Shown here piece by piece: positions 3,112-15,938 of a DNA stretch of 34,836 bases. A program made the position numbers and the translations under genes. The notes beneath the pieces were generated by a model, which was not told the DNA's origin, searched no databases, and saw nothing but the letters and a program-made list of their open reading frames with translations. The first letter of the stretch is position 1; each line of letters begins with the position of its first letter. The stretch comes from a virus (lineage: Duplodnaviria; Heunggongvirae; Uroviricota; Caudoviricetes). The stretch lies in the IMG/VR virus record IMGVR_UViG_2687453454_000001, positions 1-34,836 of that record, one strand, 5' to 3'.

Positions 3112-3501
3112 TTATTTTTTTTCGTTGTAATCCCTGCCAGCCACTCGGTTGCCATTTCCTGACACATTGACTGAGTTTGAGACGGAGTTGCCAGCCGTTA
3201 AGGCTGCAAATACAGCAGCTTTGATGGCTAATGGGGCGTTTCTGAAATGATTAATTAGATCATGCTCGTCCCGTGTTAGTGCAACACCACCAGATTCTTG
3301 CCCTGTCAAAATGAACTGGACGTTAGCCCCATTGAGGGCGAAGGAACGCAAAACATTGCCGCCGGGAACGGCAGCGCCTCGCTCATACTTCCCCCAAATT
3401 TCTCTGGATATACCGCAAAGTTCTGCAATGGAGGCTTGATTAAAGCCCAATCTTTTCCGTTCATTTTTCAATCTGATAGCGCATTGAGAATCAAAGTTCA
3501 T
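3112..3501 (-). CDS. prophage immunity repressor (HTH, XRE/CI-like)
   Basis: Helix-turn-helix signature RLKNERKRLGFNQASIAELCGISREIWGKYERG; divergent from the early operon as for P2 C / 186 cI. Start chosen at the ATG at 3501 because the upstream in-frame starts (3537, GTG 3555) overlap the promoter/operator; the maximal ORF is 3112..3555. Confidence 0.7.
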   Translation of the reverse strand: MNFDSQCAIRLKNERKRLGFNQASIAELCGISREIWGKYERGAAVPGGNVLRSFALNGANVQFILTGQESGGVALTRDEHDLINHFRNAPLAIKAAVFAALTAGNSVSNSVNVSGNGNRVAGRDYNEKK

Positions 3502-3511
3502 AAAACACCGT

Positions 3512-3540
3512 TTGACAATGAGAACTATTGTTCTCATACT
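3512..3540 (+). promoter_or_regulatory. candidate early (lytic) promoter with overlapping palindromic operator
   Basis: TTGACA at 3512-3517, 17-bp spacer, CATACT at 3535-3540; the spacer holds the palindrome ATGAGAAC-TATT-GTTCTCAT (3518-3537). Confidence 0.5.
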
Positions 3541-4588: not shown

Positions 4589-4756
4589 ATGACAATTCAA
4601 AAAAATGACCGCGCTCACCTGCTTGGGTTGTTACGTATCAAATTAAACCTTATGAAGAAAGAAAAGCTTTCCACTAATGAAATTTACCGCAGCCTGGAAG
4701 ATTGGATCGGCAACAGAGAACAGGTAGCAGTAAACAAGGAGCGTAAAAATGGTTAA
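4589..4756 (+). CDS. small hypothetical protein (55 aa), not in the ORF track
   Basis: ATG at 4589 preceded by GAGG; uninterrupted frame to a TAA that overlaps the methylase start. Confidence 0.35.
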   Translation: MTIQKNDRAHLLGLLRIKLNLMKKEKLSTNEIYRSLEDWIGNREQVAVNKERKNG

Positions 4757-5711
4757 CTCCCCTCTTATTTGGGTGGGCGGCAAGTCTCGCGCTATGTCGC
4801 ATGTGCTTGATGCTTTGCCCCACGGTGAATGCCTGGTTGAGCCTTTCGTGGGAAGCGGTAGCGTCTTCCTGAACACTGATTACAAAACCTATGTTCTCTG
4901 CGATAGCAATGCAGCGCTGATTAATTTCTTTTCAATGGTTAAACGTAATACCGAGGAGCTTTTAACTGCTTCCGCAAAGATATTCGAAAAGGGTAATAAT
5001 GAGATTATATACTATGAATATCGCGACGAATTTAATGTAATCAATCGTGAGTTTAAATATGACCGCCGAAAATATAATGATGAAACGTTAGTTAGATATG
5101 CGGCGCTGTTCCTTTATTTAAACCGCCATTGCTATAACGGTGTATATCGCGTTAATTTGAAAAATGAATTCAACGTTCCTTTTGGTTTTCGTAAGAAGCC
5201 AATTTTCCCTGTGGCTGAGATTCAGCATTTTGCTAAAAGAGCGTGGGAAAAGGGGGCTATGTTCCTGCATGGTGATTTCAGAGCAACAATCCCGCTGGCG
5301 ATTGGTCATTCGGGCTCCGTGGTTTATTGCGATCCGCCATACCTGCCAGCTAGCGAAACTGCGAATTTTACGGCTTACGGCAAGCCATTTACCGATGCAG
5401 ATCACCGCACCTTGGTTGCGATGCTTTCACGCCTCTACAACAACGCAAAAATACCATCTGTCATATCTGGCAGTGACACACCAGAGACGCACCAAATTTA
5501 TTACCCGTTCACCCTAAAAGCTTTCGACGTTCGGCGCTCAGTGGGGGCCAAAACTCGCAACCTTGCTGGCGAGGTTATAGGTACTCTGTGTGTCTGCGAT
5601 TGCTGTGGGAGTGTGGGCGGTGGCTGTCCTGATTGTGGGGCGGTGATGGGCGATGCGACTTATTCAGAAATGGTCGCTTCTGGTGCTTTTGAAGATCAGG
5701 AGGTGTTCTGA
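4749..5711 (+). CDS. DNA N6-adenine methyltransferase (Dam family) with Cys-rich C-terminal tail
   Basis: N-terminal IWVGGKS, SAM-binding EPFVGSGSVFLN and catalytic YCDPPY motifs; C-terminal CVCDCCGSVGGGCPDCG cluster. Confidence 0.85.
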   Translation: MVNSPLIWVGGKSRAMSHVLDALPHGECLVEPFVGSGSVFLNTDYKTYVLCDSNAALINFFSMVKRNTEELLTASAKIFEKGNNEIIYYEYRDEFNVINREFKYDRRKYNDETLVRYAALFLYLNRHCYNGVYRVNLKNEFNVPFGFRKKPIFPVAEIQHFAKRAWEKGAMFLHGDFRATIPLAIGHSGSVVYCDPPYLPASETANFTAYGKPFTDADHRTLVAMLSRLYNNAKIPSVISGSDTPETHQIYYPFTLKAFDVRRSVGAKTRNLAGEVIGTLCVCDCCGSVGGGCPDCGAVMGDATYSEMVASGAFEDQEVF

Positions 5712-5893: not shown

Positions 5894-8335
5894 GTGACTC
5901 AGGCGCGTCGTGTTCACTCAATGACTACGGATAAACCGGGCAACTTTGACGAGTCTGCCCGGTACGCCTATCCGTGGAATGAACCAAAACAGGCCATTGC
6001 CGTTGATAAGACTCCTGCTGTTGATCTATATGAATTGGGTCAAGAGCAGGAGTTTTTCGCGTGGGTTGAAGATACTCTCAAGCCACTACCTACATTTATT
6101 CGCCGCCGCGTTTCATCCCGCATAAATGCCGTACACGCTGACAAAGGGCGTCATATTGCAAAGTTAACTCTTCTCAATATCGTGGCGCGTGACCTTCCAC
6201 ACGTGCGAGCAGTTACAGAGCAATATGCCGCGCCTGTTGGCAGTGACTGGATCATTTATTCCGAATTAAACCCACTTTTTCATACGTTTGATAACCTTCG
6301 CGAACTAACGCGCCGGTTCAATCAGTTGGCTGACTGCACGGACGAAGATATTGATTTACTTGCTCAGGATATCGCTATTTATGCCAATGCTGCCTTAGCT
6401 GAAGTGAGTGAAACCTGTGCTGTACTTAGCCCTGTAGAGTACAGCAAACGAATGCTGCTGGAAGGCTCAAGGCTGATTGCTTACTTCGGGCTAATCGCGC
6501 CCTGGGCTTCACGGCGCAAAATGCCACTTGATGAAATGGCTGCTTCAATTCGAAAAATTCTTGATGATCATTTTTGGTCACGCCTGCTGCGAAAGTACGC
6601 GCGCCGCTGGCGTGAACATCTGCATATTGCCTTTGGTGATGTGCGTCGCGATGTGTCCCCCTATTGCAGCAAAAATCACGTTAAACAGTGGGATGCGCGT
6701 CGCAAACGTAGCAGGGCAATCATGAGCCGCCTGGAACTTGAAGATCAGGTTACGGGTGAGCGCATGTCGTTGATAGAACAGATTGATAAAAGCGTATCGA
6801 ATCCTGAAAAGCGCCGCGTAGAACTTATGACGCGTATTGGTGGCTTTGAGAAGGTGGCAACGGAAAGCGGTTATGCCGGAAGTTTCTTCACGCTCACCGC
6901 CCCGTCTAAATATCATGCCTATACCGCGTTTGGACACCGCAACCACAAGTGGAACGGGGCAAGCCCTCGCCGATCACAGCGGTATCTCAATCAAATATGG
7001 CAACAGATTCGCGCTGAACTCGCACGCCGCGAAATTCCTGTATTCGGTCTTCGCGTTGCTGAATCCCATCATGACGGTACTCCGCACTGGCATGGCCTGC
7101 TGTTTACAGACCCAGAGCACACTGATGAGTTGAAAGAGGTCATGGAAGACTACGCAACGCGTGAGGATGCGGAAGAGTTAACTGGCAAGTCTGGTAAGCA
7201 GCCCCGCTTTGAACTTAAGCCGATTGATCCGGCTTTGGGTAGCGCTACGGGTTATGTCGTTAAATACATCTCAAAAAACATTGATGGTTACGCTCTGGAC
7301 GGCGAGAGCGATCATGAAAGTGGACGCCCTCTGAAGGAAACCGCTAAGCACGCAACAGCCTGGGCGTCATGCTGGGGGATACGCCAATTTCAGTTTTTAG
7401 GGGGAGCGCCGGTGTCAGTCTGGCGTGAACTTCGCCGCCTGAAAAATCAGGATTTAGCCGACAGGGTTAGTCCTGTTTTTGGTGAGCTGCACCGCGCGGC
7501 TCACGCAGGAGATTGGCAGGGTTACATCACCTTACAGGGTGGCCCTTTTGTTTCCCGTTCCAAGTTGGTGCTGCGCGCCTGGTATCAATACAAAAACGAG
7601 CCAAGCAGTTACGGCGAGTATCAGAAAGCTATCAAGGGTCTGGTTATGCCAGCATCCAGCATTCCGCCCGTAGAAACGCGCCTCCATTCTTATCGCATTG
7701 TGAAGATGAGGCCTAAATCTTCAGACCGTGTCGATCCGGGTTTTGACCTTAAGGGCGCGTCTGCGACCTCTTGGACTCGTGTCAATAACTGTACGGAGTA
7801 CAAAAAACACACAGTTTCACCGCCTGTCTATCCTCCAGATCTGACTGTGCCAGCTGGCGAAATACAGCCAGAGCAATTTGAAATCGGTCAGTTAAGCCGA
7901 GATCAGAGAAAACAGATTGAGGAAGACATCAGAAACCACAAATCAAATCAGCGTGTTTCACCTGCTGATCAGTTTGAGATGCTTGCATTAAGCATTACTG
8001 CCGGTGATTGCACCGATTATGACCGGGCTAGGGCTGAAAGCTATATGAAGGCAGCACATGCTCTTCGCCAGGAAGAAAGCGCGGTGAGTGAGGAGGTTGA
8101 ATCCCTGGCCAAGGAAATTATGGGATGGGCGAAGATGAGAAAAATTTCAATCAATCCGGTACAGGCGATGAAGCTGGCTCAGGGGGGAGAAGTAATGGCA
8201 CTTGATACGACATATCGGGCTAACCCGGTAACGGGTGAATTGATTGTGACCGGTGCAGATAAGCACTGGCGCAAGACGCTGGCACGACACAAGGCAGAGA
8301 CATTAGTTAACCGCTGGCTTCAGGCGGTTAAGTGA
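5894..8335 (+). CDS. A: P2 gpA-like rolling-circle replication initiator
   Basis: 813 aa; motifs HHDGTPHWHGLLF and GYVVKYISKNIDGYALDG match the P2 A family; GTG start at 5894 with AAGGTGAG RBS (alternative ATG at 5921). Confidence 0.9.
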   Translation: MTQARRVHSMTTDKPGNFDESARYAYPWNEPKQAIAVDKTPAVDLYELGQEQEFFAWVEDTLKPLPTFIRRRVSSRINAVHADKGRHIAKLTLLNIVARDLPHVRAVTEQYAAPVGSDWIIYSELNPLFHTFDNLRELTRRFNQLADCTDEDIDLLAQDIAIYANAALAEVSETCAVLSPVEYSKRMLLEGSRLIAYFGLIAPWASRRKMPLDEMAASIRKILDDHFWSRLLRKYARRWREHLHIAFGDVRRDVSPYCSKNHVKQWDARRKRSRAIMSRLELEDQVTGERMSLIEQIDKSVSNPEKRRVELMTRIGGFEKVATESGYAGSFFTLTAPSKYHAYTAFGHRNHKWNGASPRRSQRYLNQIWQQIRAELARREIPVFGLRVAESHHDGTPHWHGLLFTDPEHTDELKEVMEDYATREDAEELTGKSGKQPRFELKPIDPALGSATGYVVKYISKNIDGYALDGESDHESGRPLKETAKHATAWASCWGIRQFQFLGGAPVSVWRELRRLKNQDLADRVSPVFGELHRAAHAGDWQGYITLQGGPFVSRSKLVLRAWYQYKNEPSSYGEYQKAIKGLVMPASSIPPVETRLHSYRIVKMRPKSSDRVDPGFDLKGASATSWTRVNNCTEYKKHTVSPPVYPPDLTVPAGEIQPEQFEIGQLSRDQRKQIEEDIRNHKSNQRVSPADQFEMLALSITAGDCTDYDRARAESYMKAAHALRQEESAVSEEVESLAKEIMGWAKMRKISINPVQAMKLAQGGEVMALDTTYRANPVTGELIVTGADKHWRKTLARHKAETLVNRWLQAVK

Positions 8336-8419
8336 GTTTTGAATCAGGTCAGTGTTGTCGGAGCGGTGACGGATGTAAGTGCGATTCGGCTATTCAATGG
8401 AGTTAGAAAGGATAAATAG

Positions 8420-8446
8420 AAATGCCCCGTTGCCGGGGCATTTTTA
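8420..8446. terminator. bidirectional intrinsic terminator
   Basis: Stem ATGCCCCG / CGGGGCAT with loop TTGC, flanked by A-rich sequence on one side and T-rich on the other; sits between convergent gene A and the HTH gene. Confidence 0.7.
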
Positions 8447-8450
8447 CTTA

Positions 8451-8828
8451 CTACTCGAGCGTTAGTTGCTCGGGACTGCATTTGTACAGTGTAGCTAGCC
8501 GTTCAAGGTTGTCTTTGCGAGGACGCTCAGACTTTTCGAACTCGGACACTGTAGATTGCTTAATTCCCAGCGCTTCAGCGACTTGTTTTTGCGTCAAGCC
8601 TCTGTAAACACGCCATGCAGCCTGCATGGTGCAACCCTTCTCAGAAAGAATGTTGATAACTTCGTTTGGGTATCGAACGTTATCAGATGTGCCGGTTTCG
8701 TTTTGAACAGGCTCGTATAACTCTGCGATATCACTATCACGGGTCAGTTTTTCGAACAGTTCAATCGGCACGACAGCAGAAATTCTTTTCCCTCTACTGT
8801 CTGTGATGAATTGAATGTTAGCCATCAC
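8451..8828 (-). CDS. HTH (XRE-type) protein, putative antitoxin
   Basis: 125 aa; C-terminal HTH LTQKQVAEALGIKQSTVSEFEKSER; lies downstream of the RelE/ParE-like gene on the same strand. Confidence 0.6.
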   Translation of the reverse strand: MMANIQFITDSRGKRISAVVPIELFEKLTRDSDIAELYEPVQNETGTSDNVRYPNEVINILSEKGCTMQAAWRVYRGLTQKQVAEALGIKQSTVSEFEKSERPRKDNLERLATLYKCSPEQLTLE

Positions 8829-9011
8829 TCTTTAGTCCTACGTAGATTGTTAAAAAACAAAGATTTTTAACTTATGCGTCTTCGACTGCGTAGACCACTT
8901 GATATAATTTTTGGCATCTAAATACTCCTAATTGGTTGATTGAAATTAAAAATTTTTTTTCTTCAACATCTACCGTTTGAGTTGACGGGGCGGGGTTTCC
9001 CCCGCCACTCA

Positions 9012-9290
9012 TCAATATGTCGTGGACGTTCGGCGCAAGATGCGCTGAATCTCGATCACTACAGGGGCATTGTTGCTTAAGGCATACAACACTCTGTAAT
9101 TCCCAACCCTCAGTCGATACTTACCATCACTATCAGTGAGCTTTTTAACATCAAGCCCCTTCAGGTCAGGATATGACTGCATCGCGTTAACCTTCTCGCG
9201 AACAGCTTTTTGATCTTTTGATGGTAGCGAGCGTAAGTCCTTAACGGCCTTACCAGTCCATTGAATGTTTGTCGTCATGACGAACCTCAA
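9012..9290 (-). CDS. RelE/ParE-superfamily toxin-like protein
   Basis: 92 aa; GKYRLRVGNYRVLYALSNNAPVVIEIQRILRR matches the RelE/ParE core pattern. Confidence 0.65.
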   Translation of the reverse strand: MRFVMTTNIQWTGKAVKDLRSLPSKDQKAVREKVNAMQSYPDLKGLDVKKLTDSDGKYRLRVGNYRVLYALSNNAPVVIEIQRILRRTSTTY

Positions 9291-9332
9291 AGGTAAATTG
9301 TTAAAGAACGCATCCCGAAACTCGGAATAACT

Positions 9333-9404
9333 ACAATATAGGGGTTAACCCCTATATTGTCAAGAAAGCCCTATATTTCCATGCGCTGATATAGGCAATA
9401 TAGT
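9333..9404. promoter_or_regulatory. operator region with perfect 28-bp palindrome and repeated half-sites
   Basis: ACAATATAGGGGTTAACCCCTATATTGT at 9333-9360, plus CCCTATATTT and ATATAGGCAATATAG copies downstream; lies between the divergent toxin gene and the 128-aa gene. Confidence 0.55.
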
Positions 9405-9411
9405 TCGCGAA

Positions 9412-9798
9412 GTGAGTGATACGGTGAATTTTGATGGGCTTTCACGGCAGGAAAAGCGAGAACTGGCACAGCGGTTTAGTGACGTTGTTCGAAGCAAACT
9501 TAAAACACGTCCACCGGAACGAGAAGAAGGGGCTGGACTATCGGTGAAGGAGCTTATAACTAAAGAACTACTTGAGCTATGTGGGATTGATGCCTGTGTC
9601 GGGATGATAAAATCAATAGTACCGGGAACGCATATTGGCTATATCGATCTGATTTTTGAGATCGAAGATGGACGTCTAGCGTTCAAAATTTGCTCAGAAA
9701 CAAACTTCAATGTTGCTACTAAACAAAAGATGGCGAACATTTTAGATAGAGATAGAATACTAAAAAGGTTGAAGCAAGCTTTGTTTACAAATGGATAG
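9412..9798 (+). CDS. hypothetical protein (128 aa), first gene of the AT-rich cargo pair
   Basis: ORF with GTG start at 9412 (alternative GTG at 9424); GC falls along the gene; ends 20 bp before the 944-aa ORF. Confidence 0.5.
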   Translation: MSDTVNFDGLSRQEKRELAQRFSDVVRSKLKTRPPEREEGAGLSVKELITKELLELCGIDACVGMIKSIVPGTHIGYIDLIFEIEDGRLAFKICSETNFNVATKQKMANILDRDRILKRLKQALFTNG

Positions 9799-9818
9799 GG
9801 CAAAAAAGATGCCTCGTT

Positions 9819-12653
9819 ATGTGTGTCGTTATTTACCACAAATTGGGATTGGTTATGAGCATTATGAAAATAGAAGTAAAAGGTAAGCCAAAAGGAGCAG
9901 TCATTTATATCAATGTCAAGAAAACCATAGCTTTTTATTTGACGATTTCAATTTTAATTCTGCTTGGGATGTATTTATCACGTTTTTGTTCTGTGCCATA
10001 TAAATATTTATTGATTAGCCCATCTTTTTATAATAATCCATATCTTAATTGGATAACTGGTGTTTGGGGTAGTTTTTTAGGCATGCACGGTACTATAGCT
10101 GCTTTGTCTATAACTTTTATGGGAATGTTTGTCGATCAGGTTTCAAAGACATCTGAACATGGTTTTGAGCATTTATCGAAAGTCTTATTGCTAAGAGAGT
10201 ATGATTTTTTAGGATTTAGTGTTGAATCAGTGTGTAGTCTATTATGTGGCGTTTTTTTACTTCTCATTGGTAGTGGCTTGATTGGATATTTAATTTCATC
10301 TTTACTTTCTTTATTTTTTATCACTAAATATGGCATTATGTATTATAGACTTTACCATTTAACAGAAGAACCCGGAGTTATTAATGGGATTTTATTAGAT
10401 TCTATCAGGACAACAGGCATCAAGTATAATGAGATTAACAAACAACGACAGATTCTTGCTAACGAGTTTTCTCAAGTAATATCGGGAGGTGATTACTACA
10501 GTGATGATCAAAGTGCCTTCTATTGGAATGATGATGCGATAACGATAAATATTTTTCCTGATGACACTGATGTGGTTATTTCTGGATACAATCCAAACAT
10601 ATTTAATCAGCTTTCGGTAAAGATTAAAGAATTTAATTTGAACCATCCGCCTATCTTGCTTTTCTCTTTATCATTCTTATCACCCATATCAAATTCCTCA
10701 ATGAAAATCATTCCATCTAATAAATCTGATTTGACAGAGGAGCATATTTCATCAATTGAATCAATTTTGAGGAAAGGGCTGATATTTAGTTCTGTTCCTT
10801 ATGTTTTTAATGAGTTTAAACAATTTGAAGAAGCTCTTGTAGTAAACGTCAGAAACAGTTTGCTGAATGGTGATGAGTGGACGTTAGATTTTGGAGTGCG
10901 TATTTTTTATGAACTAACTTCAAATGATAACTATATCTACACTCTAAAGAATATAGATTTGTCAATTACGTCCTCTAATACTAAAGATGTGGTGAAAACA
11001 TCTTTGTTTGCAAGTTATTTTGAAAAAATGATACGTGAGGCTTATAATCAGAGTAATCTTGAAAAGGCTGCTAATATAATGCGGTCGTTAATAGACCTAG
11101 CGAGATATATTTATGGTAAGAATAACTTTGTCGATTTTTATAAAAGGATTTTTAGACAATTTGACCATAGGGTAAAGTATCGTGCAGAAGAATCAAATTA
11201 TGTTTTTTTAGATCTGTATACATCCACTGTGCTGCACAACCTAGTATATAAGAATTATGCGGCTTTCAAAGTTGATACTGAGTTTGTGACGCGTAGATTG
11301 CAGTATCTAGATCTTAGCAATAAAACAGAACATGATTCATTGAATGAAATGCAACGTAAGATATTACGTTTATTATTTGAAGTTATATCCTTGCTAATTA
11401 TGCGAATAGAGCATGTGAAGGCGAAGGGTGAAGAACGCAAAGAGGAACTCAACGAATTAATCATTTCATTGAAGTCTTGGGTAAATGCTAAATTTTTGCA
11501 GGAATTATATTACAAAAAAGAGCTTTACGATGTGTTGTTTACTATACCTCAAGAGTTTTCGGTATTCGGTGCAGAAACTAAAATTCGAGAAATACCAGAT
11601 GGTGAAGCGACATGGAGATCAGTTTCGAACGATACTTATAAGATGATCGCATTCGTTCTTACGCAAAGCTCTTTCAACAATAATCAATTGAATCTTTTAT
11701 TTGTTAGAGATGCATTTCAATTTAAAAATGCTACGTCAATATTAACCCGCGAATTAAGTTCTATAATAGATTACATAGAGGGTGAATCTTTCTCTAAATT
11801 ATTTAAATTGATAACTGAAAAGGATTTGGTCGAAGATAGTAATAAAAAAACAGTAGTTGAGAAGTTGGAGTCGATTATTTCCTCGCAAAATTCTTTAGTG
11901 CTGCGCAGTGTGATCGAATCAGAATTAGAGCCTTCATTGGTTGATAAATATAGTAACGAGATCATACATTCTGTGGAGAAGCTATTTGAGCTAATTTTGC
12001 CATTGGAAGCAATTCCTTTAGAGATTGGATTCAATGGGATCGAATCACATCTATTAATTAATAAAAGAGAGGTGCTCCCCCCAATTGATGGTGTTTCTTA
12101 TGGAATGAACATTCATAACCATAGTCAGTGGTTAATATATGAATGGATCAGGAGTGTATTAAACAGTATTGATATAAATGCTGTGGAGGTTATCACTATT
12201 GATGACCCACAAGATTTGCCAACCGAAAAATTAGTTACCATAGAATATCAAGTTGAAGATAGAGTTAACACTTTTAGGCATTCTCGAGGTTTAAAAATTA
12301 ATGATAAGGAAGGCCATTTGAATTTGAATGGTTCTGGCTTGTATTATTTGGATTTATTAAATAACTTTAATTTAAAAAAATCAAAAGAAATACTAACGGT
12401 TAACATAGAAAAGATATTTGAAGGAAATATTGAAATGGTTAAAGGACGATATGATTTTGATAATGATAATCCTTATCTATATTCAATTTTAAATGTCGTT
12501 TTTAACATTGTTGCCATACCAAATATGATATGTAAACTTTATTTTCTATCGGAAGATAAATGTCTGTTAATCAATCAAAAACAAGAAAGAGAGATGGAGC
12601 AATTAATTAAAGGGAACAGAACGGAGAATCCTGATAACAGTAATGTATCTTAA
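9819..12653 (+). CDS. large AT-rich membrane-anchored protein of unknown function (944 aa)
   Basis: Uninterrupted 2.8-kb ORF in very AT-rich DNA; N-terminal hydrophobic helices (TIAFYLTISILILLGMYL, WITGVWGSFLGMHGTIAALSITFMGMFV, VCSLLCGVFLLLIGSGLIGYLISSLLSLFFI) then about 750 aa of soluble sequence; alternative starts at 9855 and 9864. Confidence 0.7.
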   Translation: MCVVIYHKLGLVMSIMKIEVKGKPKGAVIYINVKKTIAFYLTISILILLGMYLSRFCSVPYKYLLISPSFYNNPYLNWITGVWGSFLGMHGTIAALSITFMGMFVDQVSKTSEHGFEHLSKVLLLREYDFLGFSVESVCSLLCGVFLLLIGSGLIGYLISSLLSLFFITKYGIMYYRLYHLTEEPGVINGILLDSIRTTGIKYNEINKQRQILANEFSQVISGGDYYSDDQSAFYWNDDAITINIFPDDTDVVISGYNPNIFNQLSVKIKEFNLNHPPILLFSLSFLSPISNSSMKIIPSNKSDLTEEHISSIESILRKGLIFSSVPYVFNEFKQFEEALVVNVRNSLLNGDEWTLDFGVRIFYELTSNDNYIYTLKNIDLSITSSNTKDVVKTSLFASYFEKMIREAYNQSNLEKAANIMRSLIDLARYIYGKNNFVDFYKRIFRQFDHRVKYRAEESNYVFLDLYTSTVLHNLVYKNYAAFKVDTEFVTRRLQYLDLSNKTEHDSLNEMQRKILRLLFEVISLLIMRIEHVKAKGEERKEELNELIISLKSWVNAKFLQELYYKKELYDVLFTIPQEFSVFGAETKIREIPDGEATWRSVSNDTYKMIAFVLTQSSFNNNQLNLLFVRDAFQFKNATSILTRELSSIIDYIEGESFSKLFKLITEKDLVEDSNKKTVVEKLESIISSQNSLVLRSVIESELEPSLVDKYSNEIIHSVEKLFELILPLEAIPLEIGFNGIESHLLINKREVLPPIDGVSYGMNIHNHSQWLIYEWIRSVLNSIDINAVEVITIDDPQDLPTEKLVTIEYQVEDRVNTFRHSRGLKINDKEGHLNLNGSGLYYLDLLNNFNLKKSKEILTVNIEKIFEGNIEMVKGRYDFDNDNPYLYSILNVVFNIVAIPNMICKLYFLSEDKCLLINQKQEREMEQLIKGNRTENPDNSNVS

Positions 12654-12788
12654 AAAGAATAAGTGATTGATACCTTACTATCAATGCGCAAAATTTACAT
12701 GGAATTTTGTCAAAGTAGATCACGTGAGGCGGGGAAAATTGAAAATGATCTAAAGGTAATCGCTAGTCAAAAGATTGCACTAGGCGGC

Positions 12789-12887
12789 TGCACAATAGTG
12801 CACAAGTTTGCACAATTTTTGAAACAACGTTTTTTCCATGCCGCCCCAGCGCTGGCGGGGCCTGGGCGGACTGCACAAAGTGCACAA
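12789..12887. repeat. five copies of TGCACAA in the packaging region
   Basis: Copies at 12789, 12799, 12809 (exactly 10 bp apart) and 12872, 12881, immediately upstream of the cos-like sequence. Confidence 0.6.
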
Positions 12888-12909
12888 AAAGAGGCCGGTT
12901 TAGCGCGCA

Positions 12910-12930
12910 GGCGAGGCGGGGGAGCAAGCG
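12910..12930. other. cos site (P2-type cohesive-end sequence)
   Basis: GGCGAGGCGGGGGAGCAAGCG resembles the P2 19-nt cohesive end GGCGAGGCGGGGAAAGCAC as I recall it; lies next to the portal and terminase genes. Confidence 0.6.
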
Positions 12931-13161
12931 CGCGCAAAGGGGGGCAGGTAGGGGGGCATATCCTTCGCCATTCGCCGTCTGTCGGGTGCTCATGTTGATG
13001 GTTGAGCGAAGCGGCAGCGCGAGAGAAGTCGCGCCAGAAGCCCGTTGGCTGCGTCTGGTAGGGGGGGGGTTTATTTGTGTTTCGTGAGTGGCCGAGATGG
13101 CCGGAAATGATGGTGCTGCGGGTGGTACCGCACCGCCAGAAATGACGATGCGGCAAGGAGA

Positions 13162-14214
13162 TCACTTCGTGGGTTCAAGCAATGCGTAAGGGTTGAAGCG
13201 AATCACCTCCTCACCCAGCCAGTCGTTAACATGCTTCATGGCTTCCATGTAGGGTGTCAGCTCGTTGACGGCGAACACGCGGGCCGCTTTCTCAATATCA
13301 CCGAATGAACCGTTCCCTTCCGGAATGGCGCCCATCAGTTGCGGCGGTACCCGGTGCGCTGCCAGCATGTCATCGCGGGTGGAAGACTTCACCCCCACAA
13401 ACTCATCCTTAGCCGATATCTGGCTGAATGGCAGTATTTGCACGGAGTCTTTGCCGCCGTTAGGTGCGTGCAGAAGGATGTTCTTAAACGCACCGCCGCG
13501 CCGGGTATCCGTCAGCGTCTTTTTGAGCTTATCAAGGCTCTCCTGGTCGGCCATCGCGCTGTTAACGTAGACGATGCAGCCAGCGTGTGAGCCGTTGTCG
13601 TAGTAAAGCTTTCTGAACTTGTCAGCAGAATGGGCCAGATTTGCAGACAGCAGGCCAGCGAAATACTCAGGCATGCCGTATATTTCCTGGTGAATATCCG
13701 GGCTGAGAACGTGGCATACCGAGCCCGTTGAAAACATGTGATCCTGTAGCCCGGCCTGAATAAACCAGTAAGTGTCCAGGTCAGAACCACGGCGTGTGTA
13801 TTTCGCCAGCGAGTGACGAAAGCCAAAGGAACCACCAAGCCGGTTTTTTCGCATCTCAAGATAACCATTCCCGAAGACAAACCAGTCCAGCGCGAAGGCG
13901 GAGAACACCTGGCGGGAAAGAAGTTTGTGCGGGACAAAGCATCCGGCAAGGACGTTGCGCTTGAAATAAAGCGCCGACTGGTGCCAGCTCGCATAGCCAA
14001 ACTGACGGGCGAGGCCATACCAGTCAATGGGGGTTTCGTAGTATCGCCCGTTGTCTGCGCAATACATGTTATCAAGCAGGTCGCTGGCACCACTCACCGG
14101 CCATGGACCGTCGAAGGTGAATGAGTTCAGCTCCGGTGACGCTTTCAGTGAGGCGGCGAGATCTGCCTGCTCCCTGGCATACTTCCTGCCGCGTGTGGGT
14201 CTTTGTTTGCTCAA
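13162..14214 (-). CDS. Q: portal protein (gpQ-like)
   Basis: 350 aa; position next to cos and the large terminase, and P2 Q-like sequence. Confidence 0.88.
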   Translation of the reverse strand: MSKQRPTRGRKYAREQADLAASLKASPELNSFTFDGPWPVSGASDLLDNMYCADNGRYYETPIDWYGLARQFGYASWHQSALYFKRNVLAGCFVPHKLLSRQVFSAFALDWFVFGNGYLEMRKNRLGGSFGFRHSLAKYTRRGSDLDTYWFIQAGLQDHMFSTGSVCHVLSPDIHQEIYGMPEYFAGLLSANLAHSADKFRKLYYDNGSHAGCIVYVNSAMADQESLDKLKKTLTDTRRGGAFKNILLHAPNGGKDSVQILPFSQISAKDEFVGVKSSTRDDMLAAHRVPPQLMGAIPEGNGSFGDIEKAARVFAVNELTPYMEAMKHVNDWLGEEVIRFNPYALLEPTK

Positions 14215-14216
14215 GG

Positions 14217-15938
14217 TTAATACTCCGTAACTGTCATACTGCTGCCGCCTTCTTGTCCCAGCGGTTCGTTAATGGTGGCAAGCATCGTCGCCCATGCGAG
14301 ATCGCCATGACTGACGCCGCGAGAGCGGTCCGTGTCGTAAGTGACAACACCGCCAGGGGTAACGATCTTGCGGACAGAGTTGAATGCACCAACCAGGTCA
14401 AGCTCACCACGATCAAACTCCCAGCGCCCGCCACGAATCAGCTGTTGCATCTTCAGCACGAGCATTCGTTTGCTGGACGGTGAGAACTGGTAACAAACCG
14501 CTGCCGGGAAATGCTTTTTAACCAGCTGATAAACCGCTTCACCAATACCGGTGCCATCGATCCCAATGTGCTGCACGTTGTACCGGGTGAGCATGCCGAT
14601 AATTAGATTGGCCTGCTCTTCGAACTCCATCCCTCGTATGCGTAGTGTCTCAATCGTGCGGAACTTGCCGCCGGGCACCATCGGCACAGCGTTAACGGAT
14701 ATGGCTCCACTGTCCCCCTTGCCGCTGGCGCCGTTCGGGTCATAGCCAATCCAGACGGGACGATCAGCCATGGGGCGGGCCGCATATGGCCGCCAGTCGG
14801 GCCAGTCGTCATAACCATCAGCGCCGCATGCCAGTAGTCTGTTATAGTCAAAGGCGCTTTCACCGCTTTTGATGAACTGGCATCCGTACAGGTTGTCGTA
14901 TTCCTCCGGGCTGTTCTCTTCCCGGATTTCGTCGATATCAGTCAGATCCCATCCATGGTCGATAGCATCCTGCAACGTGACAATCTGCCTCCAGATCTTG
15001 TCCGGGCACATCAGGCCGCTGTTAAGCGTTTTCCAGGATGTATCAAATTCAATGCGCTTGCCATGGCTGCGACCTTTGTTAAATGCTTCACCTGTCCAGA
15101 ATGGATAAGCCTCATGGCTTTCTGCTGAAGGGGTGGAGAAATAGGTACGCGTTAGACCTTTTAGCGTTGCCATGGCGCCCGCGACTTTTTTCAGGTTGGC
15201 AAACTGGCCTACCCAAAAGAATTCGTCGAAATACAGGTTGCCCGTGTATGACTGAGCGGTAGCCGCTGACGTGCCAAGAAAATGCAGCTCGGCGCCGTTG
15301 AACAGCTGGATCATGTCGCCGCCCTTAAGCTCTACATCTACTTCTTCAGCGGCCGAGCGAATGAAACTTCGAAACTGGTACGCCTGGCGGCGGCTTGCCG
15401 ATAAAAAGATTTGGTTGCGCTGATGCTTATATTTCACATCCTCAGACAGGGCGCGCACCAGAGCTTCACGTGCGAAATACCACGTCGCGCCAACCTGACG
15501 GCTTTTCAGGATCATGCGGTTACGCCAGTGGTGATTGTCATACCACCCTTTCTGGTGCCAGTGCAGAGAGCCGAGAATGTTCTCCCGCAGCGCGGCAATC
15601 TGCGACTCTGAGAAATAGTTTTGCTTTTTGCGGATCTTTTTCTTCGGCTGGGTGGCTGCTGTGCCGTTATCCAGCTTTTTCAACTGACGGGTGAGCAGGT
15701 CAATCTCTTTGAAATCACCGCCGGTCTTTTTGTCTTTGCCAGTGAGCTGAATTAGCCTGGCATCAATGGATGTTGTCACGCGCTGGATCGGCGGTGTGGC
15801 GTCCCATTCATCTCGCTTTTTCCATGAGTAAACCGTGTTCTGGTTGATCCCCATCAGGCGTGCGATCTCTGCTGGCGGGTAGCCCTGCCAGTAAAGCTGT
15901 CGTGCACGCTGCATGATGAATGCTTCTTCAATCGCCAT
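14217..15938 (-). CDS. P: terminase large (ATPase) subunit (gpP-like)
   Basis: 573 aa; N-terminal QGYPPAEIARLMGINQNTVYSWKK HTH-like region typical of P2 gpP; adjacent to portal. Confidence 0.88.
   Translation of the reverse strand: MAIEEAFIMQRARQLYWQGYPPAEIARLMGINQNTVYSWKKRDEWDATPPIQRVTTSIDARLIQLTGKDKKTGGDFKEIDLLTRQLKKLDNGTAATQPKKKIRKKQNYFSESQIAALRENILGSLHWHQKGWYDNHHWRNRMILKSRQVGATWYFAREALVRALSEDVKYKHQRNQIFLSASRRQAYQFRSFIRSAAEEVDVELKGGDMIQLFNGAELHFLGTSAATAQSYTGNLYFDEFFWVGQFANLKKVAGAMATLKGLTRTYFSTPSAESHEAYPFWTGEAFNKGRSHGKRIEFDTSWKTLNSGLMCPDKIWRQIVTLQDAIDHGWDLTDIDEIREENSPEEYDNLYGCQFIKSGESAFDYNRLLACGADGYDDWPDWRPYAARPMADRPVWIGYDPNGASGKGDSGAISVNAVPMVPGGKFRTIETLRIRGMEFEEQANLIIGMLTRYNVQHIGIDGTGIGEAVYQLVKKHFPAAVCYQFSPSSKRMLVLKMQQLIRGGRWEFDRGELDLVGAFNSVRKIVTPGGVVTYDTDRSRGVSHGDLAWATMLATINEPLGQEGGSSMTVTEY

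Follow-up and report, generated by a model that had tools for sequence, protein, structure and literature searches.

A perfect 28-bp palindrome in a P2-like prophage most probably forms the core operator of a toxin-first type II toxin-antitoxin (TA) cassette, at which the cassette would repress its own leftward promoter, P_left. We put the probability of this reading, which was reached by comparing sequences, at roughly 85%. Below, the window denotes the whole stretch of prophage DNA that was analysed (34,836 nucleotides). Every feature of an autoregulatory TA operator that can be tested in this way is present: the palindrome overlaps the -35 and -10 elements of the operon's own promoter; its half-sites are dyad-symmetric and repeated, as would suit an oligomeric regulator; the operon encodes a toxin together with an antitoxin that carries a DNA-binding domain; and the site is kept with the cassette, its sequence tracking the presumed specificity of the regulator. 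From these features we infer binding and repression.

The palindrome (ACAATATAGGGGTT/AACCCCTATATTGT) occupies positions 9333–9360 and is made of two 14-nt arms that are 100% complementary with no spacer between them, for which the chance expectation in 34.8 kb is about 1e-4 (4^-14 x 34.8 kb). Additional half-site copies lie beside it, namely AAGCCCTATATT at 9366–9377, which is a 92% direct repeat of 9347–9358, ATATAGG at 9389–9395 and CAATATAG at 9396–9403. All three exact matches to AATATAGGG in the whole window fall within 9335–9377, as do four of the five matches to ATATAGG within 9336–9395. The hexamer ATATAG/CTATAT occurs five times in 75 bp; when the window was shuffled 1000 times with dinucleotide composition preserved and the largest hexamer cluster of each shuffle scored, a cluster of four arose once and a cluster of five never (0/1000). 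These counts bear out an earlier note on this DNA, which had reported a 28-bp palindrome with extra half-sites, and three such copies are indeed found by position 9403. Neither motif matching nor the shuffle count revealed a second half-site cluster elsewhere in the prophage window.

On the minus strand, the palindrome coincides with a strong candidate promoter, TTGACA-17-TATATT, which agrees with the sigma-70 consensus at 11 of 12 positions and, with a score of 15.47 in a position-weight scan, ranks as the second-best sigma-70 site of the 34.8-kb window. Read on this strand, arm AATATAGGG begins right after TTGACA and arm CCCTATATT holds the -10 element TATATT, such that the palindrome covers the last three bases of the -35 element, the spacer and the -10 element. 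The spacing of these elements places the putative transcription start near 9328 on the minus strand, in which case the palindrome would extend from about -32 to -5 and the proximal extra half-site from about -51 to -38. A mirror-image rightward promoter that uses the TATATT of the palindrome (ACTACA-17-TATATT, score 7.5) was also considered and rejected for its poor -35 element.

Downstream of P_left, the first gene encodes a small toxin that matches Pfam ParE_toxin (1.5e-7, above the cut-off), finds RelE3 (3bpq, 1.4e-5) and RelE (9g12) as its nearest solved structures, and falls below the cut-off of NCBIfam TIGR02385 RelE_StbE; RefSeq names it 'type II toxin-antitoxin system RelE family toxin'. 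The antitoxin, which we presume to bind the half-sites, matches Pfam HTH_3 (1.3e-12) over residues 73–122. Its AlphaFold model (pLDDT 82) comprises a beta-beta-alpha unit (residues 5–30), a low-confidence linker (31–53) and a five-helix domain (54–121), the last of which superposes on the XRE/Cro/C1 folds of ImmR, SinR, 434 Cro, P22 c2 and HipB at 1.5–1.9 Å. A profile of the antitoxin family searched against the PDB found ImmR (5.6e-5) and HipB (3.3e-4); with this profile, Mycobacterium tuberculosis HigA2 appeared at E = 0.35 and Vibrio cholerae HigA2 was not found. The XRE fold itself is a generic one. At least 15 loci from many genera contain the toxin-antitoxin pair with its genes in the same order. 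The antitoxin family comprises 83 protein clusters, all of which have generic names only, and it therefore appears to be uncharacterised; our literature search for experimental binding or expression data on it returned none.

A gap of 183 bp separates the toxin and antitoxin genes, within which the best promoter score (7.2) equals background, and a single transcript from P_left is thus the simplest reading; given this gap and the strong hairpin in it, co-transcription of the two genes is itself a deduction. The hairpin that directly follows the toxin gene has a predicted energy of -23.2 kcal/mol (z = -5.08), and a GGCGGGG...CCCGCC hairpin stands at the same position in 11 of 12 related cassettes. 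Between the two genes also lies a mini-ORF, for which positional equivalents of unrelated sequence are found in three other loci (L003, L016 and L020). In the toxin leader, the box GTTCTTTAA and a co-located hairpin recur in almost every related locus, even where the operator differs. RNAalifold retained only two invariant pairs of this hairpin with no covariation, and the single-sequence fold is unremarkable (z = -0.34), so we report it as positionally conserved only. The leader box and the intergenic hairpin may constitute a separate layer of control. The features of the cassette and its surroundings are collected in Table 1.

Table 1 Features of the toxin-antitoxin cassette and its surroundings in the window.
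Feature	Position	Strand	Remarks
gpA replication endonuclease	5894–8335		Pfam Phage_GPA 8.8e-95
Terminator-like hairpin	8420–8443	-	cassette end; 10-pair stem, T-rich tail
Antitoxin/regulator gene	8451–8825	-	124 aa; presumed half-site binder
Mini-ORF	8867–8917	-	16 codons, MPKIISSGLRSRRRIS; between toxin and antitoxin; strong Shine-Dalgarno TAGGAG
G+C-rich hairpin	8982–9015	-	directly 3' of the toxin stop; no U-run in window
RelE/ParE-superfamily toxin gene	9012–9278	-	88 aa; first operon gene; ATG at 9278
5' leader of toxin mRNA	9279–9329	-	hairpin 9329–9311; box GTTCTTTAA 9309–9301; Shine-Dalgarno GAGG 9288–9285
P_left -10 TATATT	9335–9340	-	inside promoter-proximal palindrome arm
Predicted operator core (inverted repeat)	9335–9343, 9350–9358		AATATAGGG-N6-CCCTATATT; arms conserved in 12 related loci
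P_left -35 TTGACA	9358–9363	-	abuts and overlaps promoter-distal palindrome arm; invariant in 13 loci
Proximal extra half-site	9366–9379	-	reads GAAATATAGGGCTT; direct repeat, 19 nt upstream of the arm on the -35 side
Candidate rightward promoter	9376–9404	+	TTTCCA-17-TATAGT; weak (9/12 matches, score 10.86)
Two distal inverted half-sites	9389–9403	+	within the 40-bp junction 9381–9420
3' gpA remnant	9421–9798	+	read as 'ORF128' from GTG at 9412
Portal protein	13162–14214	-	
Large terminase	14217–15938	-	

To follow the site through evolution, we assembled relatives of the antitoxin from species-representative genomes (L003–L009), viral contigs (L016, L020, L023, L026, L052 and L056), E. coli (L109), Klebsiella phage 3LV2017 (L110), other phages (L111 and L112) and, via protein search, further assemblies (L113–L121). 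Promoters were compared across the 13 loci with an antitoxin identity of at least 68%, L007 excluded. In 13 of 13, the promoter reads TTGACA-ATATAGGG-N6(7)-CCCTATATT, with TTGACA invariant and the arms nearly so, and among other Enterobacterales and P2-like phages, 12 related cassettes keep both the sequence and the position of arms AATATAGGG and CCCTATATT. The centre of the palindrome varies freely (GGTTAACC, GCTTGCAC, GATTAAAC, GTTTTCAC, GCTTTATC, GGGGCACC and others), leaving the arms AATATAGGG-N6-CCCTATATT, a span of 24 bp, as the only part conserved across all of these relatives. Conserved arms around a free centre make a pattern typical of a protein-binding site. The perfect 28 bp are peculiar to the window sequence: one central base differs in two viral contigs, L023 and L056, which have the entire arrangement in common with the window and are about 95% identical to it, and the exact 22-nt core ATATAGGGGTTAACCCCTATAT has no match in viral contigs, which marks the perfect centre as specific to the lineage of the window. 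The gapped pattern ATATAGGG-N5-7-CCCTATAT gave 99 matches in viral contigs, six of which accompany the cassette; the remaining 93 were taken as chance background. The promoter itself could account for some of the conservation seen in the arms, since TATATT is its -10 element; the conserved GGG/CCC and the upstream copies would be left unexplained.

Extra direct copies of (A/T)ATATAGGG, one or two in number, lie upstream of the -35 element in 11 of the 13 loci, and in L052 the upstream copy is reduced to a degenerate trace. The proximal copy usually stands 19–22 nt upstream of the core arm (L003, L004, L005, L006, L016, L020, L109 and L120), with a second copy 12–13 nt further away in several loci. 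In the two close relatives L023 and L056, substitutions in 9330–9380 are limited to the centre of the palindrome and to the stretches between sites, and the proximal half-site is conserved in both; those in 9381–9420 strike the cores of the distal copies (GATATTGG; CAATGTAG and AAATGCAG), both of which are mutated in L023 and one in L056. Homology of the cassette to all relatives is confined between 8409–8421 on the left and 9376–9378 on the right, which puts the palindrome and the proximal copy within the shared module and the distal copies outside it. The 40-bp stretch 9381–9420 matches neither the other cassettes nor gpA, and the distal half-sites are probably under no constraint, judging by these comparisons.

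Distant lineages keep the layout with half-sites of a different sequence. L114 (62% identity) carries AATATAGAT-N6-ATCTATATT with upstream copies in both orientations; L113 carries ATAAGG-N7-CCTTAT; in L112, TTGACA is followed by ATAAGATAT/ATATCTTAT; and L116 (51% identity) has three to four direct copies of GGACTAAAT together with GGACTGAAT-N8-ATTTAGTCC over the -10 element. We compared these with positions 90–98 of the antitoxin alignment, which we presume, going by the Pfam HTH_3 match and the typical XRE layout and not by the AlphaFold model, to form the recognition helix. Every ATATAGGG locus has [ST]VSEFE[KR] at these positions, and loci with other half-sites have SVSAMEK, AVSQFEK, SISQAEK or GVAKLET. 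Since the half-site changes with the presumed recognition helix, the helix-turn-helix (HTH) protein of the cassette itself is the likely reader of the repeats. The half-sites had been proposed to form a binding array for a dimeric HTH regulator, and their placement over the -35 and -10 elements, their conservation in orthologues and this covariation all speak for that proposal.

According to our model, an antitoxin dimer, alone or bound to toxin, would set one helix-turn-helix on each arm and thereby exclude RNA polymerase, such that the operon would repress itself. The extra direct copy upstream of the -35 element, of which many relatives have two, would bind more antitoxin or TA complex and strengthen repression. 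Loss of the antitoxin would free the strong P_left, and both genes would be re-expressed from one transcript. In classic Cro/cI operators, the arm centres lie roughly 10 bp apart. Here they are about 14–15 bp apart, a greater distance, so binding would need either bending of the DNA or an extended dimer.

The upstream copies are orphan direct repeats for which a symmetric dimer has no obvious use, an observation that counts against the proposed model, and their spacing to the core differs among lineages (19, 21, 22 or 31 nt). It is conceivable, if doubtful, that the combination of an inverted repeat in the promoter and orphan direct half-sites reflects an unusual asymmetric repression complex of XRE antitoxins in which dimers are bridged by toxin. 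Each toxin-bridged dimer would then use one HTH on an orphan site, and the ratio of toxin to antitoxin would tune occupancy. The array layout persists where the half-site sequence has been replaced (L116 and L114). Such a complex, if true, would extend conditional cooperativity to a family of TA cassettes in phage hotspots.

We then considered whether the same regulator also governs a rightward promoter for cargo, that is, ORF128 and the 932/944-aa gene behind it. A rightward sigma-70-like site does exist (its score is roughly among the top 24 of the window), its spacer and -10 element contain two inverted half-sites that mirror the leftward layout, and no stronger rightward promoter was found ahead of the large gene at 9855. 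Against this stands the nature of the first rightward gene. In frame, the ORF at 9412–9798 matches the C-terminal 121 aa of an intact gpA from another P2-like prophage (52% identity, E = 5e-36), stopping four residues short of the gpA end; to the complete gpA of the window it bears no similarity, and DNA homology to the gpA of the other lineage begins abruptly at 9421. Its GTG start at 9412 lacks a Shine-Dalgarno sequence, and its frame is broken in both of the close relatives, by a stop at codon 11 in L056 and by stops after codon 64 in L023. From its sequence, ORF128 is a pseudogene and a recombination scar, the 3' end that a replication gene left behind when it was replaced, and not cargo. 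Pfam, NCBIfam and PADLOC returned no matches for ORF128 or for the neighbouring 932/944-aa protein.

The rightward promoter itself fares no better. Its -10 element becomes TGTAGT or TGCAGA in L023 and L056, and the site as a whole has no counterpart in the other cassettes; the -10 element and the inverted half-sites are mutated in these 95%-identical relatives, whereas nothing has changed in the leftward elements. The cassette common to all other loci does not extend to the distal copies, and in those loci the upstream copies are direct repeats instead of inverted ones and point towards the cos/portal region or unrelated genes. There is thus neither a functional gene in the opposite direction nor a conserved opposite promoter with operator sites, and control in both directions is improbable. 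The earlier note had placed the palindrome between divergent toxin and cargo genes. The leftward toxin gene stands, and the rightward cargo gene does not, being a gpA remnant. The notion of a divergent promoter region, and with it that of a control point for expression of cargo genes, finds no support in the same evidence.

The setting of the cassette bears on a further alternative, in which the palindrome is read not by the antitoxin but by some other protein, such as a regulator of the host or of the prophage. Between gpA and the portal gene, P2-like phages have a cos-proximal variable hotspot that gathers defence and accessory genes (PMC9122126), and the cassette is a mobile module in this gpA–gpQ hotspot. 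Most related cassettes occupy the same hotspot; others are chromosomal, as in L007, where the cassette lies beside gyrA. Seven of 5426 complete E. coli genomes contain the 1.5 kb around the palindrome with 100% identity, and megablast of the region against a phage collection gave no matches. Other HTH proteins are encoded in the window, for example a RefSeq helix-turn-helix protein near 3112–3537, and one of them could in principle be the reader. The site, though, accompanies the cassette in a range of unrelated settings (P2-like hotspots, the gyrA locus, other chromosomal positions and other phage sites), its half-sites change together with the presumed recognition helix of the antitoxin, and the prophage holds no further copies elsewhere, all of which makes a foreign reader very unlikely. 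Sites of the Ogr type (TGT-N12-ACA), Cox sites, C repressor sites and the controller C-boxes of restriction-modification systems were considered and judged misfits in spacing, sequence and gene context, and the P2 cos consensus GGCGAGGCGGGGAAAGCAC has no match within three mismatches.

Least credible of all is a role as nucleic-acid structure (a cruciform or hairpin terminator, or a processing site) or as the junction for cassette exchange by recombination: the palindrome is perfect over 28 bp, the right homology boundary of the cassette lies only 16–18 bp from it, and divergence between the window and L023 changes near it, from about 0.6% in the cassette to 3–10% in the flanks, but it lies upstream of the putative start and hence outside the toxin mRNA, no T-run flanks it on either strand, relatives keep the arms in sequence without compensatory change and lose the self-complementarity of the centre, as expected of a protein site and not of a structured RNA, and a recombination role does not explain the fixed register with the -35 and -10 elements in 13 loci.

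An autoregulatory operator of the cassette, as we propose, has close counterparts. As a rule, a type II antitoxin binds an operator overlapping its own promoter, often at several sites (PMC12266136). The cassette resembles V. cholerae HigB2-HigA2 in its toxin-first order, its RelE-superfamily toxin and an antitoxin in which an N-terminal non-HTH segment precedes a C-terminal XRE dimerisation and DNA-binding domain (PMC11006873; PMC5416850), and the footprinted inverted-repeat operator of HigA2 likewise starts after the -35 element and extends over the -10 element (PMC11006873). The two differ in that the antitoxins have no detectable sequence relationship; the arms here measure 9 nt with a 6-nt spacer (AATATAGGG-N6-CCCTATATT) and those of HigA2 7 nt with a 5-nt spacer; the operator of HigA2 is single, but the present family adds one or two orphan direct half-sites upstream of the -35 element; and the N-terminal part of HigA2 is wholly disordered, whereas a small beta-beta-alpha unit is predicted here. 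Proteus vulgaris (Rts1) HigB-HigA is also toxin-first, with a dimeric HTH antitoxin on inverted repeats and several sites overlapping the -35 and -10 elements of its own promoter (PMC12266136). Its O1 and O2 are two complete inverted-repeat operators, each on one promoter element (PMC12266136), unlike the one inverted repeat over the spacer and -10 element with orphan half-sites upstream that we find. In the gene order of HigBA-type systems, the toxin gene precedes the antitoxin gene here, both on the minus strand. The toxin, unlike Rts1 HigB, scores below the cut-off of the HigB-type Pfam family Gp49 (18.4 against 23.9 bits) and has no match to HigB_toxin; as the antitoxin also has no specific similarity to HigA2, we do not file the cassette as HigBA.

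HipB of E. coli hipBA is the nearest named antitoxin by profile search, sharing the XRE fold; the match of the antitoxin to NCBIfam HipB (1.2e-5) is below the cut-off. Schumacher et al. in 2009 reportedly found that HipB uses widely spaced half-sites, TATCC-N8-GGATA, whose centres lie about 13 bp apart, on bent DNA and in several operator copies across the promoter. The resemblance to HipB is limited to the HTH domain, the half-site sequence differs, and hipBA has a kinase toxin, HipA, and an antitoxin-first order. MqsR-MqsA, like the cassette, is toxin-first and has a toxin of RelE fold; its antitoxin binds toxin through an N-terminal part and a promoter palindrome through a C-terminal XRE domain, and the palindrome in that system is short (ACCT-N2-4-AGGT). 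The match to the NCBIfam MqsA family is weak, below the cut-off and confined to the HTH (3.6e-5), and the antitoxin here lacks the zinc-binding CxxC domain found at the N terminus of MqsA, there being no Cys pairs in residues 1–60. By analogy, the element resembles the operators of HigA2, HigA, HipB and MqsA in function.

The arrangement is thus textbook-like, an ordinary kind of control element that opens no new conceptual question. For the neighbouring ORF, the annotation changes from cargo to the remnant of a replication gene, and the large uncharacterised gene next door is probably not controlled from the palindrome. What it provides is a predicted operator, defined in sequence, paired with its regulator for an uncharacterised TA family in the P2 defence hotspot, together with a set of natural specificity variants, namely ATATAGGG, ATATAGAT, ATAAGG, ATAAGATAT and GGACTAAAT.

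Compared with L023, a viral contig that carries the whole arrangement, the toxin-antitoxin cassette (window 8400-9346) differs at 6 positions in ~950 bp and is far less diverged than its surroundings: the flanking gpA reaches as many as 18 differences in a 100-bp stretch, and divergence is ~6% in the gpA remnant and ~3% in the cargo gene. This low divergence indicates either strong constraint on the cassette or a recent exchange whose right-hand limit lies near the palindrome. The remnant, ORF128, is left over from the joining of the left part of the hotspot, comprising the window's own gpA and the toxin-antitoxin cassette, at ~9420/9421; its reading frame is interrupted by stops or a frameshift in L023 and L056, both 95%-identical contigs.

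Features of the cassette and its surroundings in the window
Feature	Position	Strand	Location or basis
Methyltransferase ORF, Dam-type D12, intact-looking	4749-5711	+	Pfam 1.4e-53
Mini-ORF, peptide MPKIISSGLRSRRRIS	8867-8917	-	between toxin and antitoxin genes; strong Shine-Dalgarno
G+C-rich hairpin GGCGGGG...CCCGCC	8982-9015	-	directly 3' of toxin stop codon
Leader elements of toxin mRNA: small hairpin, then box G(C/T)TCTTTAA	9301-9329	-	5' leader
ORF128, annotated 'hypothetical protein'	9412-9798	+	in-frame 3' remnant of second, different gpA replication gene
932/944-aa gene, A+T-rich	9855-12653 (ORF from 9819)	+	P2 defence hotspot

The box in the toxin mRNA leader is nearly invariant, including in the distant loci L112, L114 and L116, where the operator half-sites are completely different, and hence is not a target of the antitoxin helix-turn-helix. 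This leader segment was also scored as terminator-like by our scan, and it may therefore act as a leader attenuator or in translation; its hairpin gave no demonstrable covariation. Among these diverged loci, the Pantoea locus (L116 1466-1645) carries three to four direct copies of GGACTAAAT along with an inverted pair over the -10 element, and the Erwinia locus (L114 1480-1658) carries copies of ATATAGATAT in both orientations, which build a second and larger dyad ahead of its core operator.

The hairpin that follows the toxin gene is predicted at -23.2 kcal/mol (z = -5.1), and a GGCGGGG...CCCGCC hairpin is found right after the toxin stop codon in 11 of 12 related cassettes, at the same place in each (L003, L004, L005, L016, L020, L109, L110, L113, L114, L116 and L120), followed by a T-run in L109 only. 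It may set the ratio of toxin to antitoxin expression through partial termination, processing or mRNA stability. Mini-ORFs of 16-19 codons with a strong Shine-Dalgarno sequence are present in cassettes with a long toxin-antitoxin gap (145-185 bp); their place is kept in the intergenic regions of L003, L016 and L020, with unrelated peptide sequences.

Two antitoxin homologues lack an upstream gene of RelE type: L118 2001-2375 (54% identity) is preceded instead by an ORF of 167 amino acids, and L008 3001-3372 (48% identity) by one of 284 amino acids. This regulator may therefore work with partners of other kinds.

Elsewhere in the window, 12800-12957 shows 80-87% identity to sequence from the portal-proximal region in a number of related phages, and in other loci this region contains repeated TTGTGCA motifs adjoining the cassette. 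The P2 cos consensus had no match within 3 mismatches in 12653-13162. The gene corresponding to the methyltransferase is an incomplete pseudogene in E. coli EC26 according to RefSeq; the 100% identity established with EC26 covers window 8400-9900 only.

The large 932/944-aa protein has predicted N-terminal membrane segments and no match in Pfam, NCBIfam or PADLOC, and is labelled 'ligand-binding sensor domain-containing protein' in some RefSeq records. Its gene was found in just 7 of 5426 E. coli genomes, those that also carry the 1.5 kb around the palindrome at 100% identity, and is a candidate defence or accessory gene.
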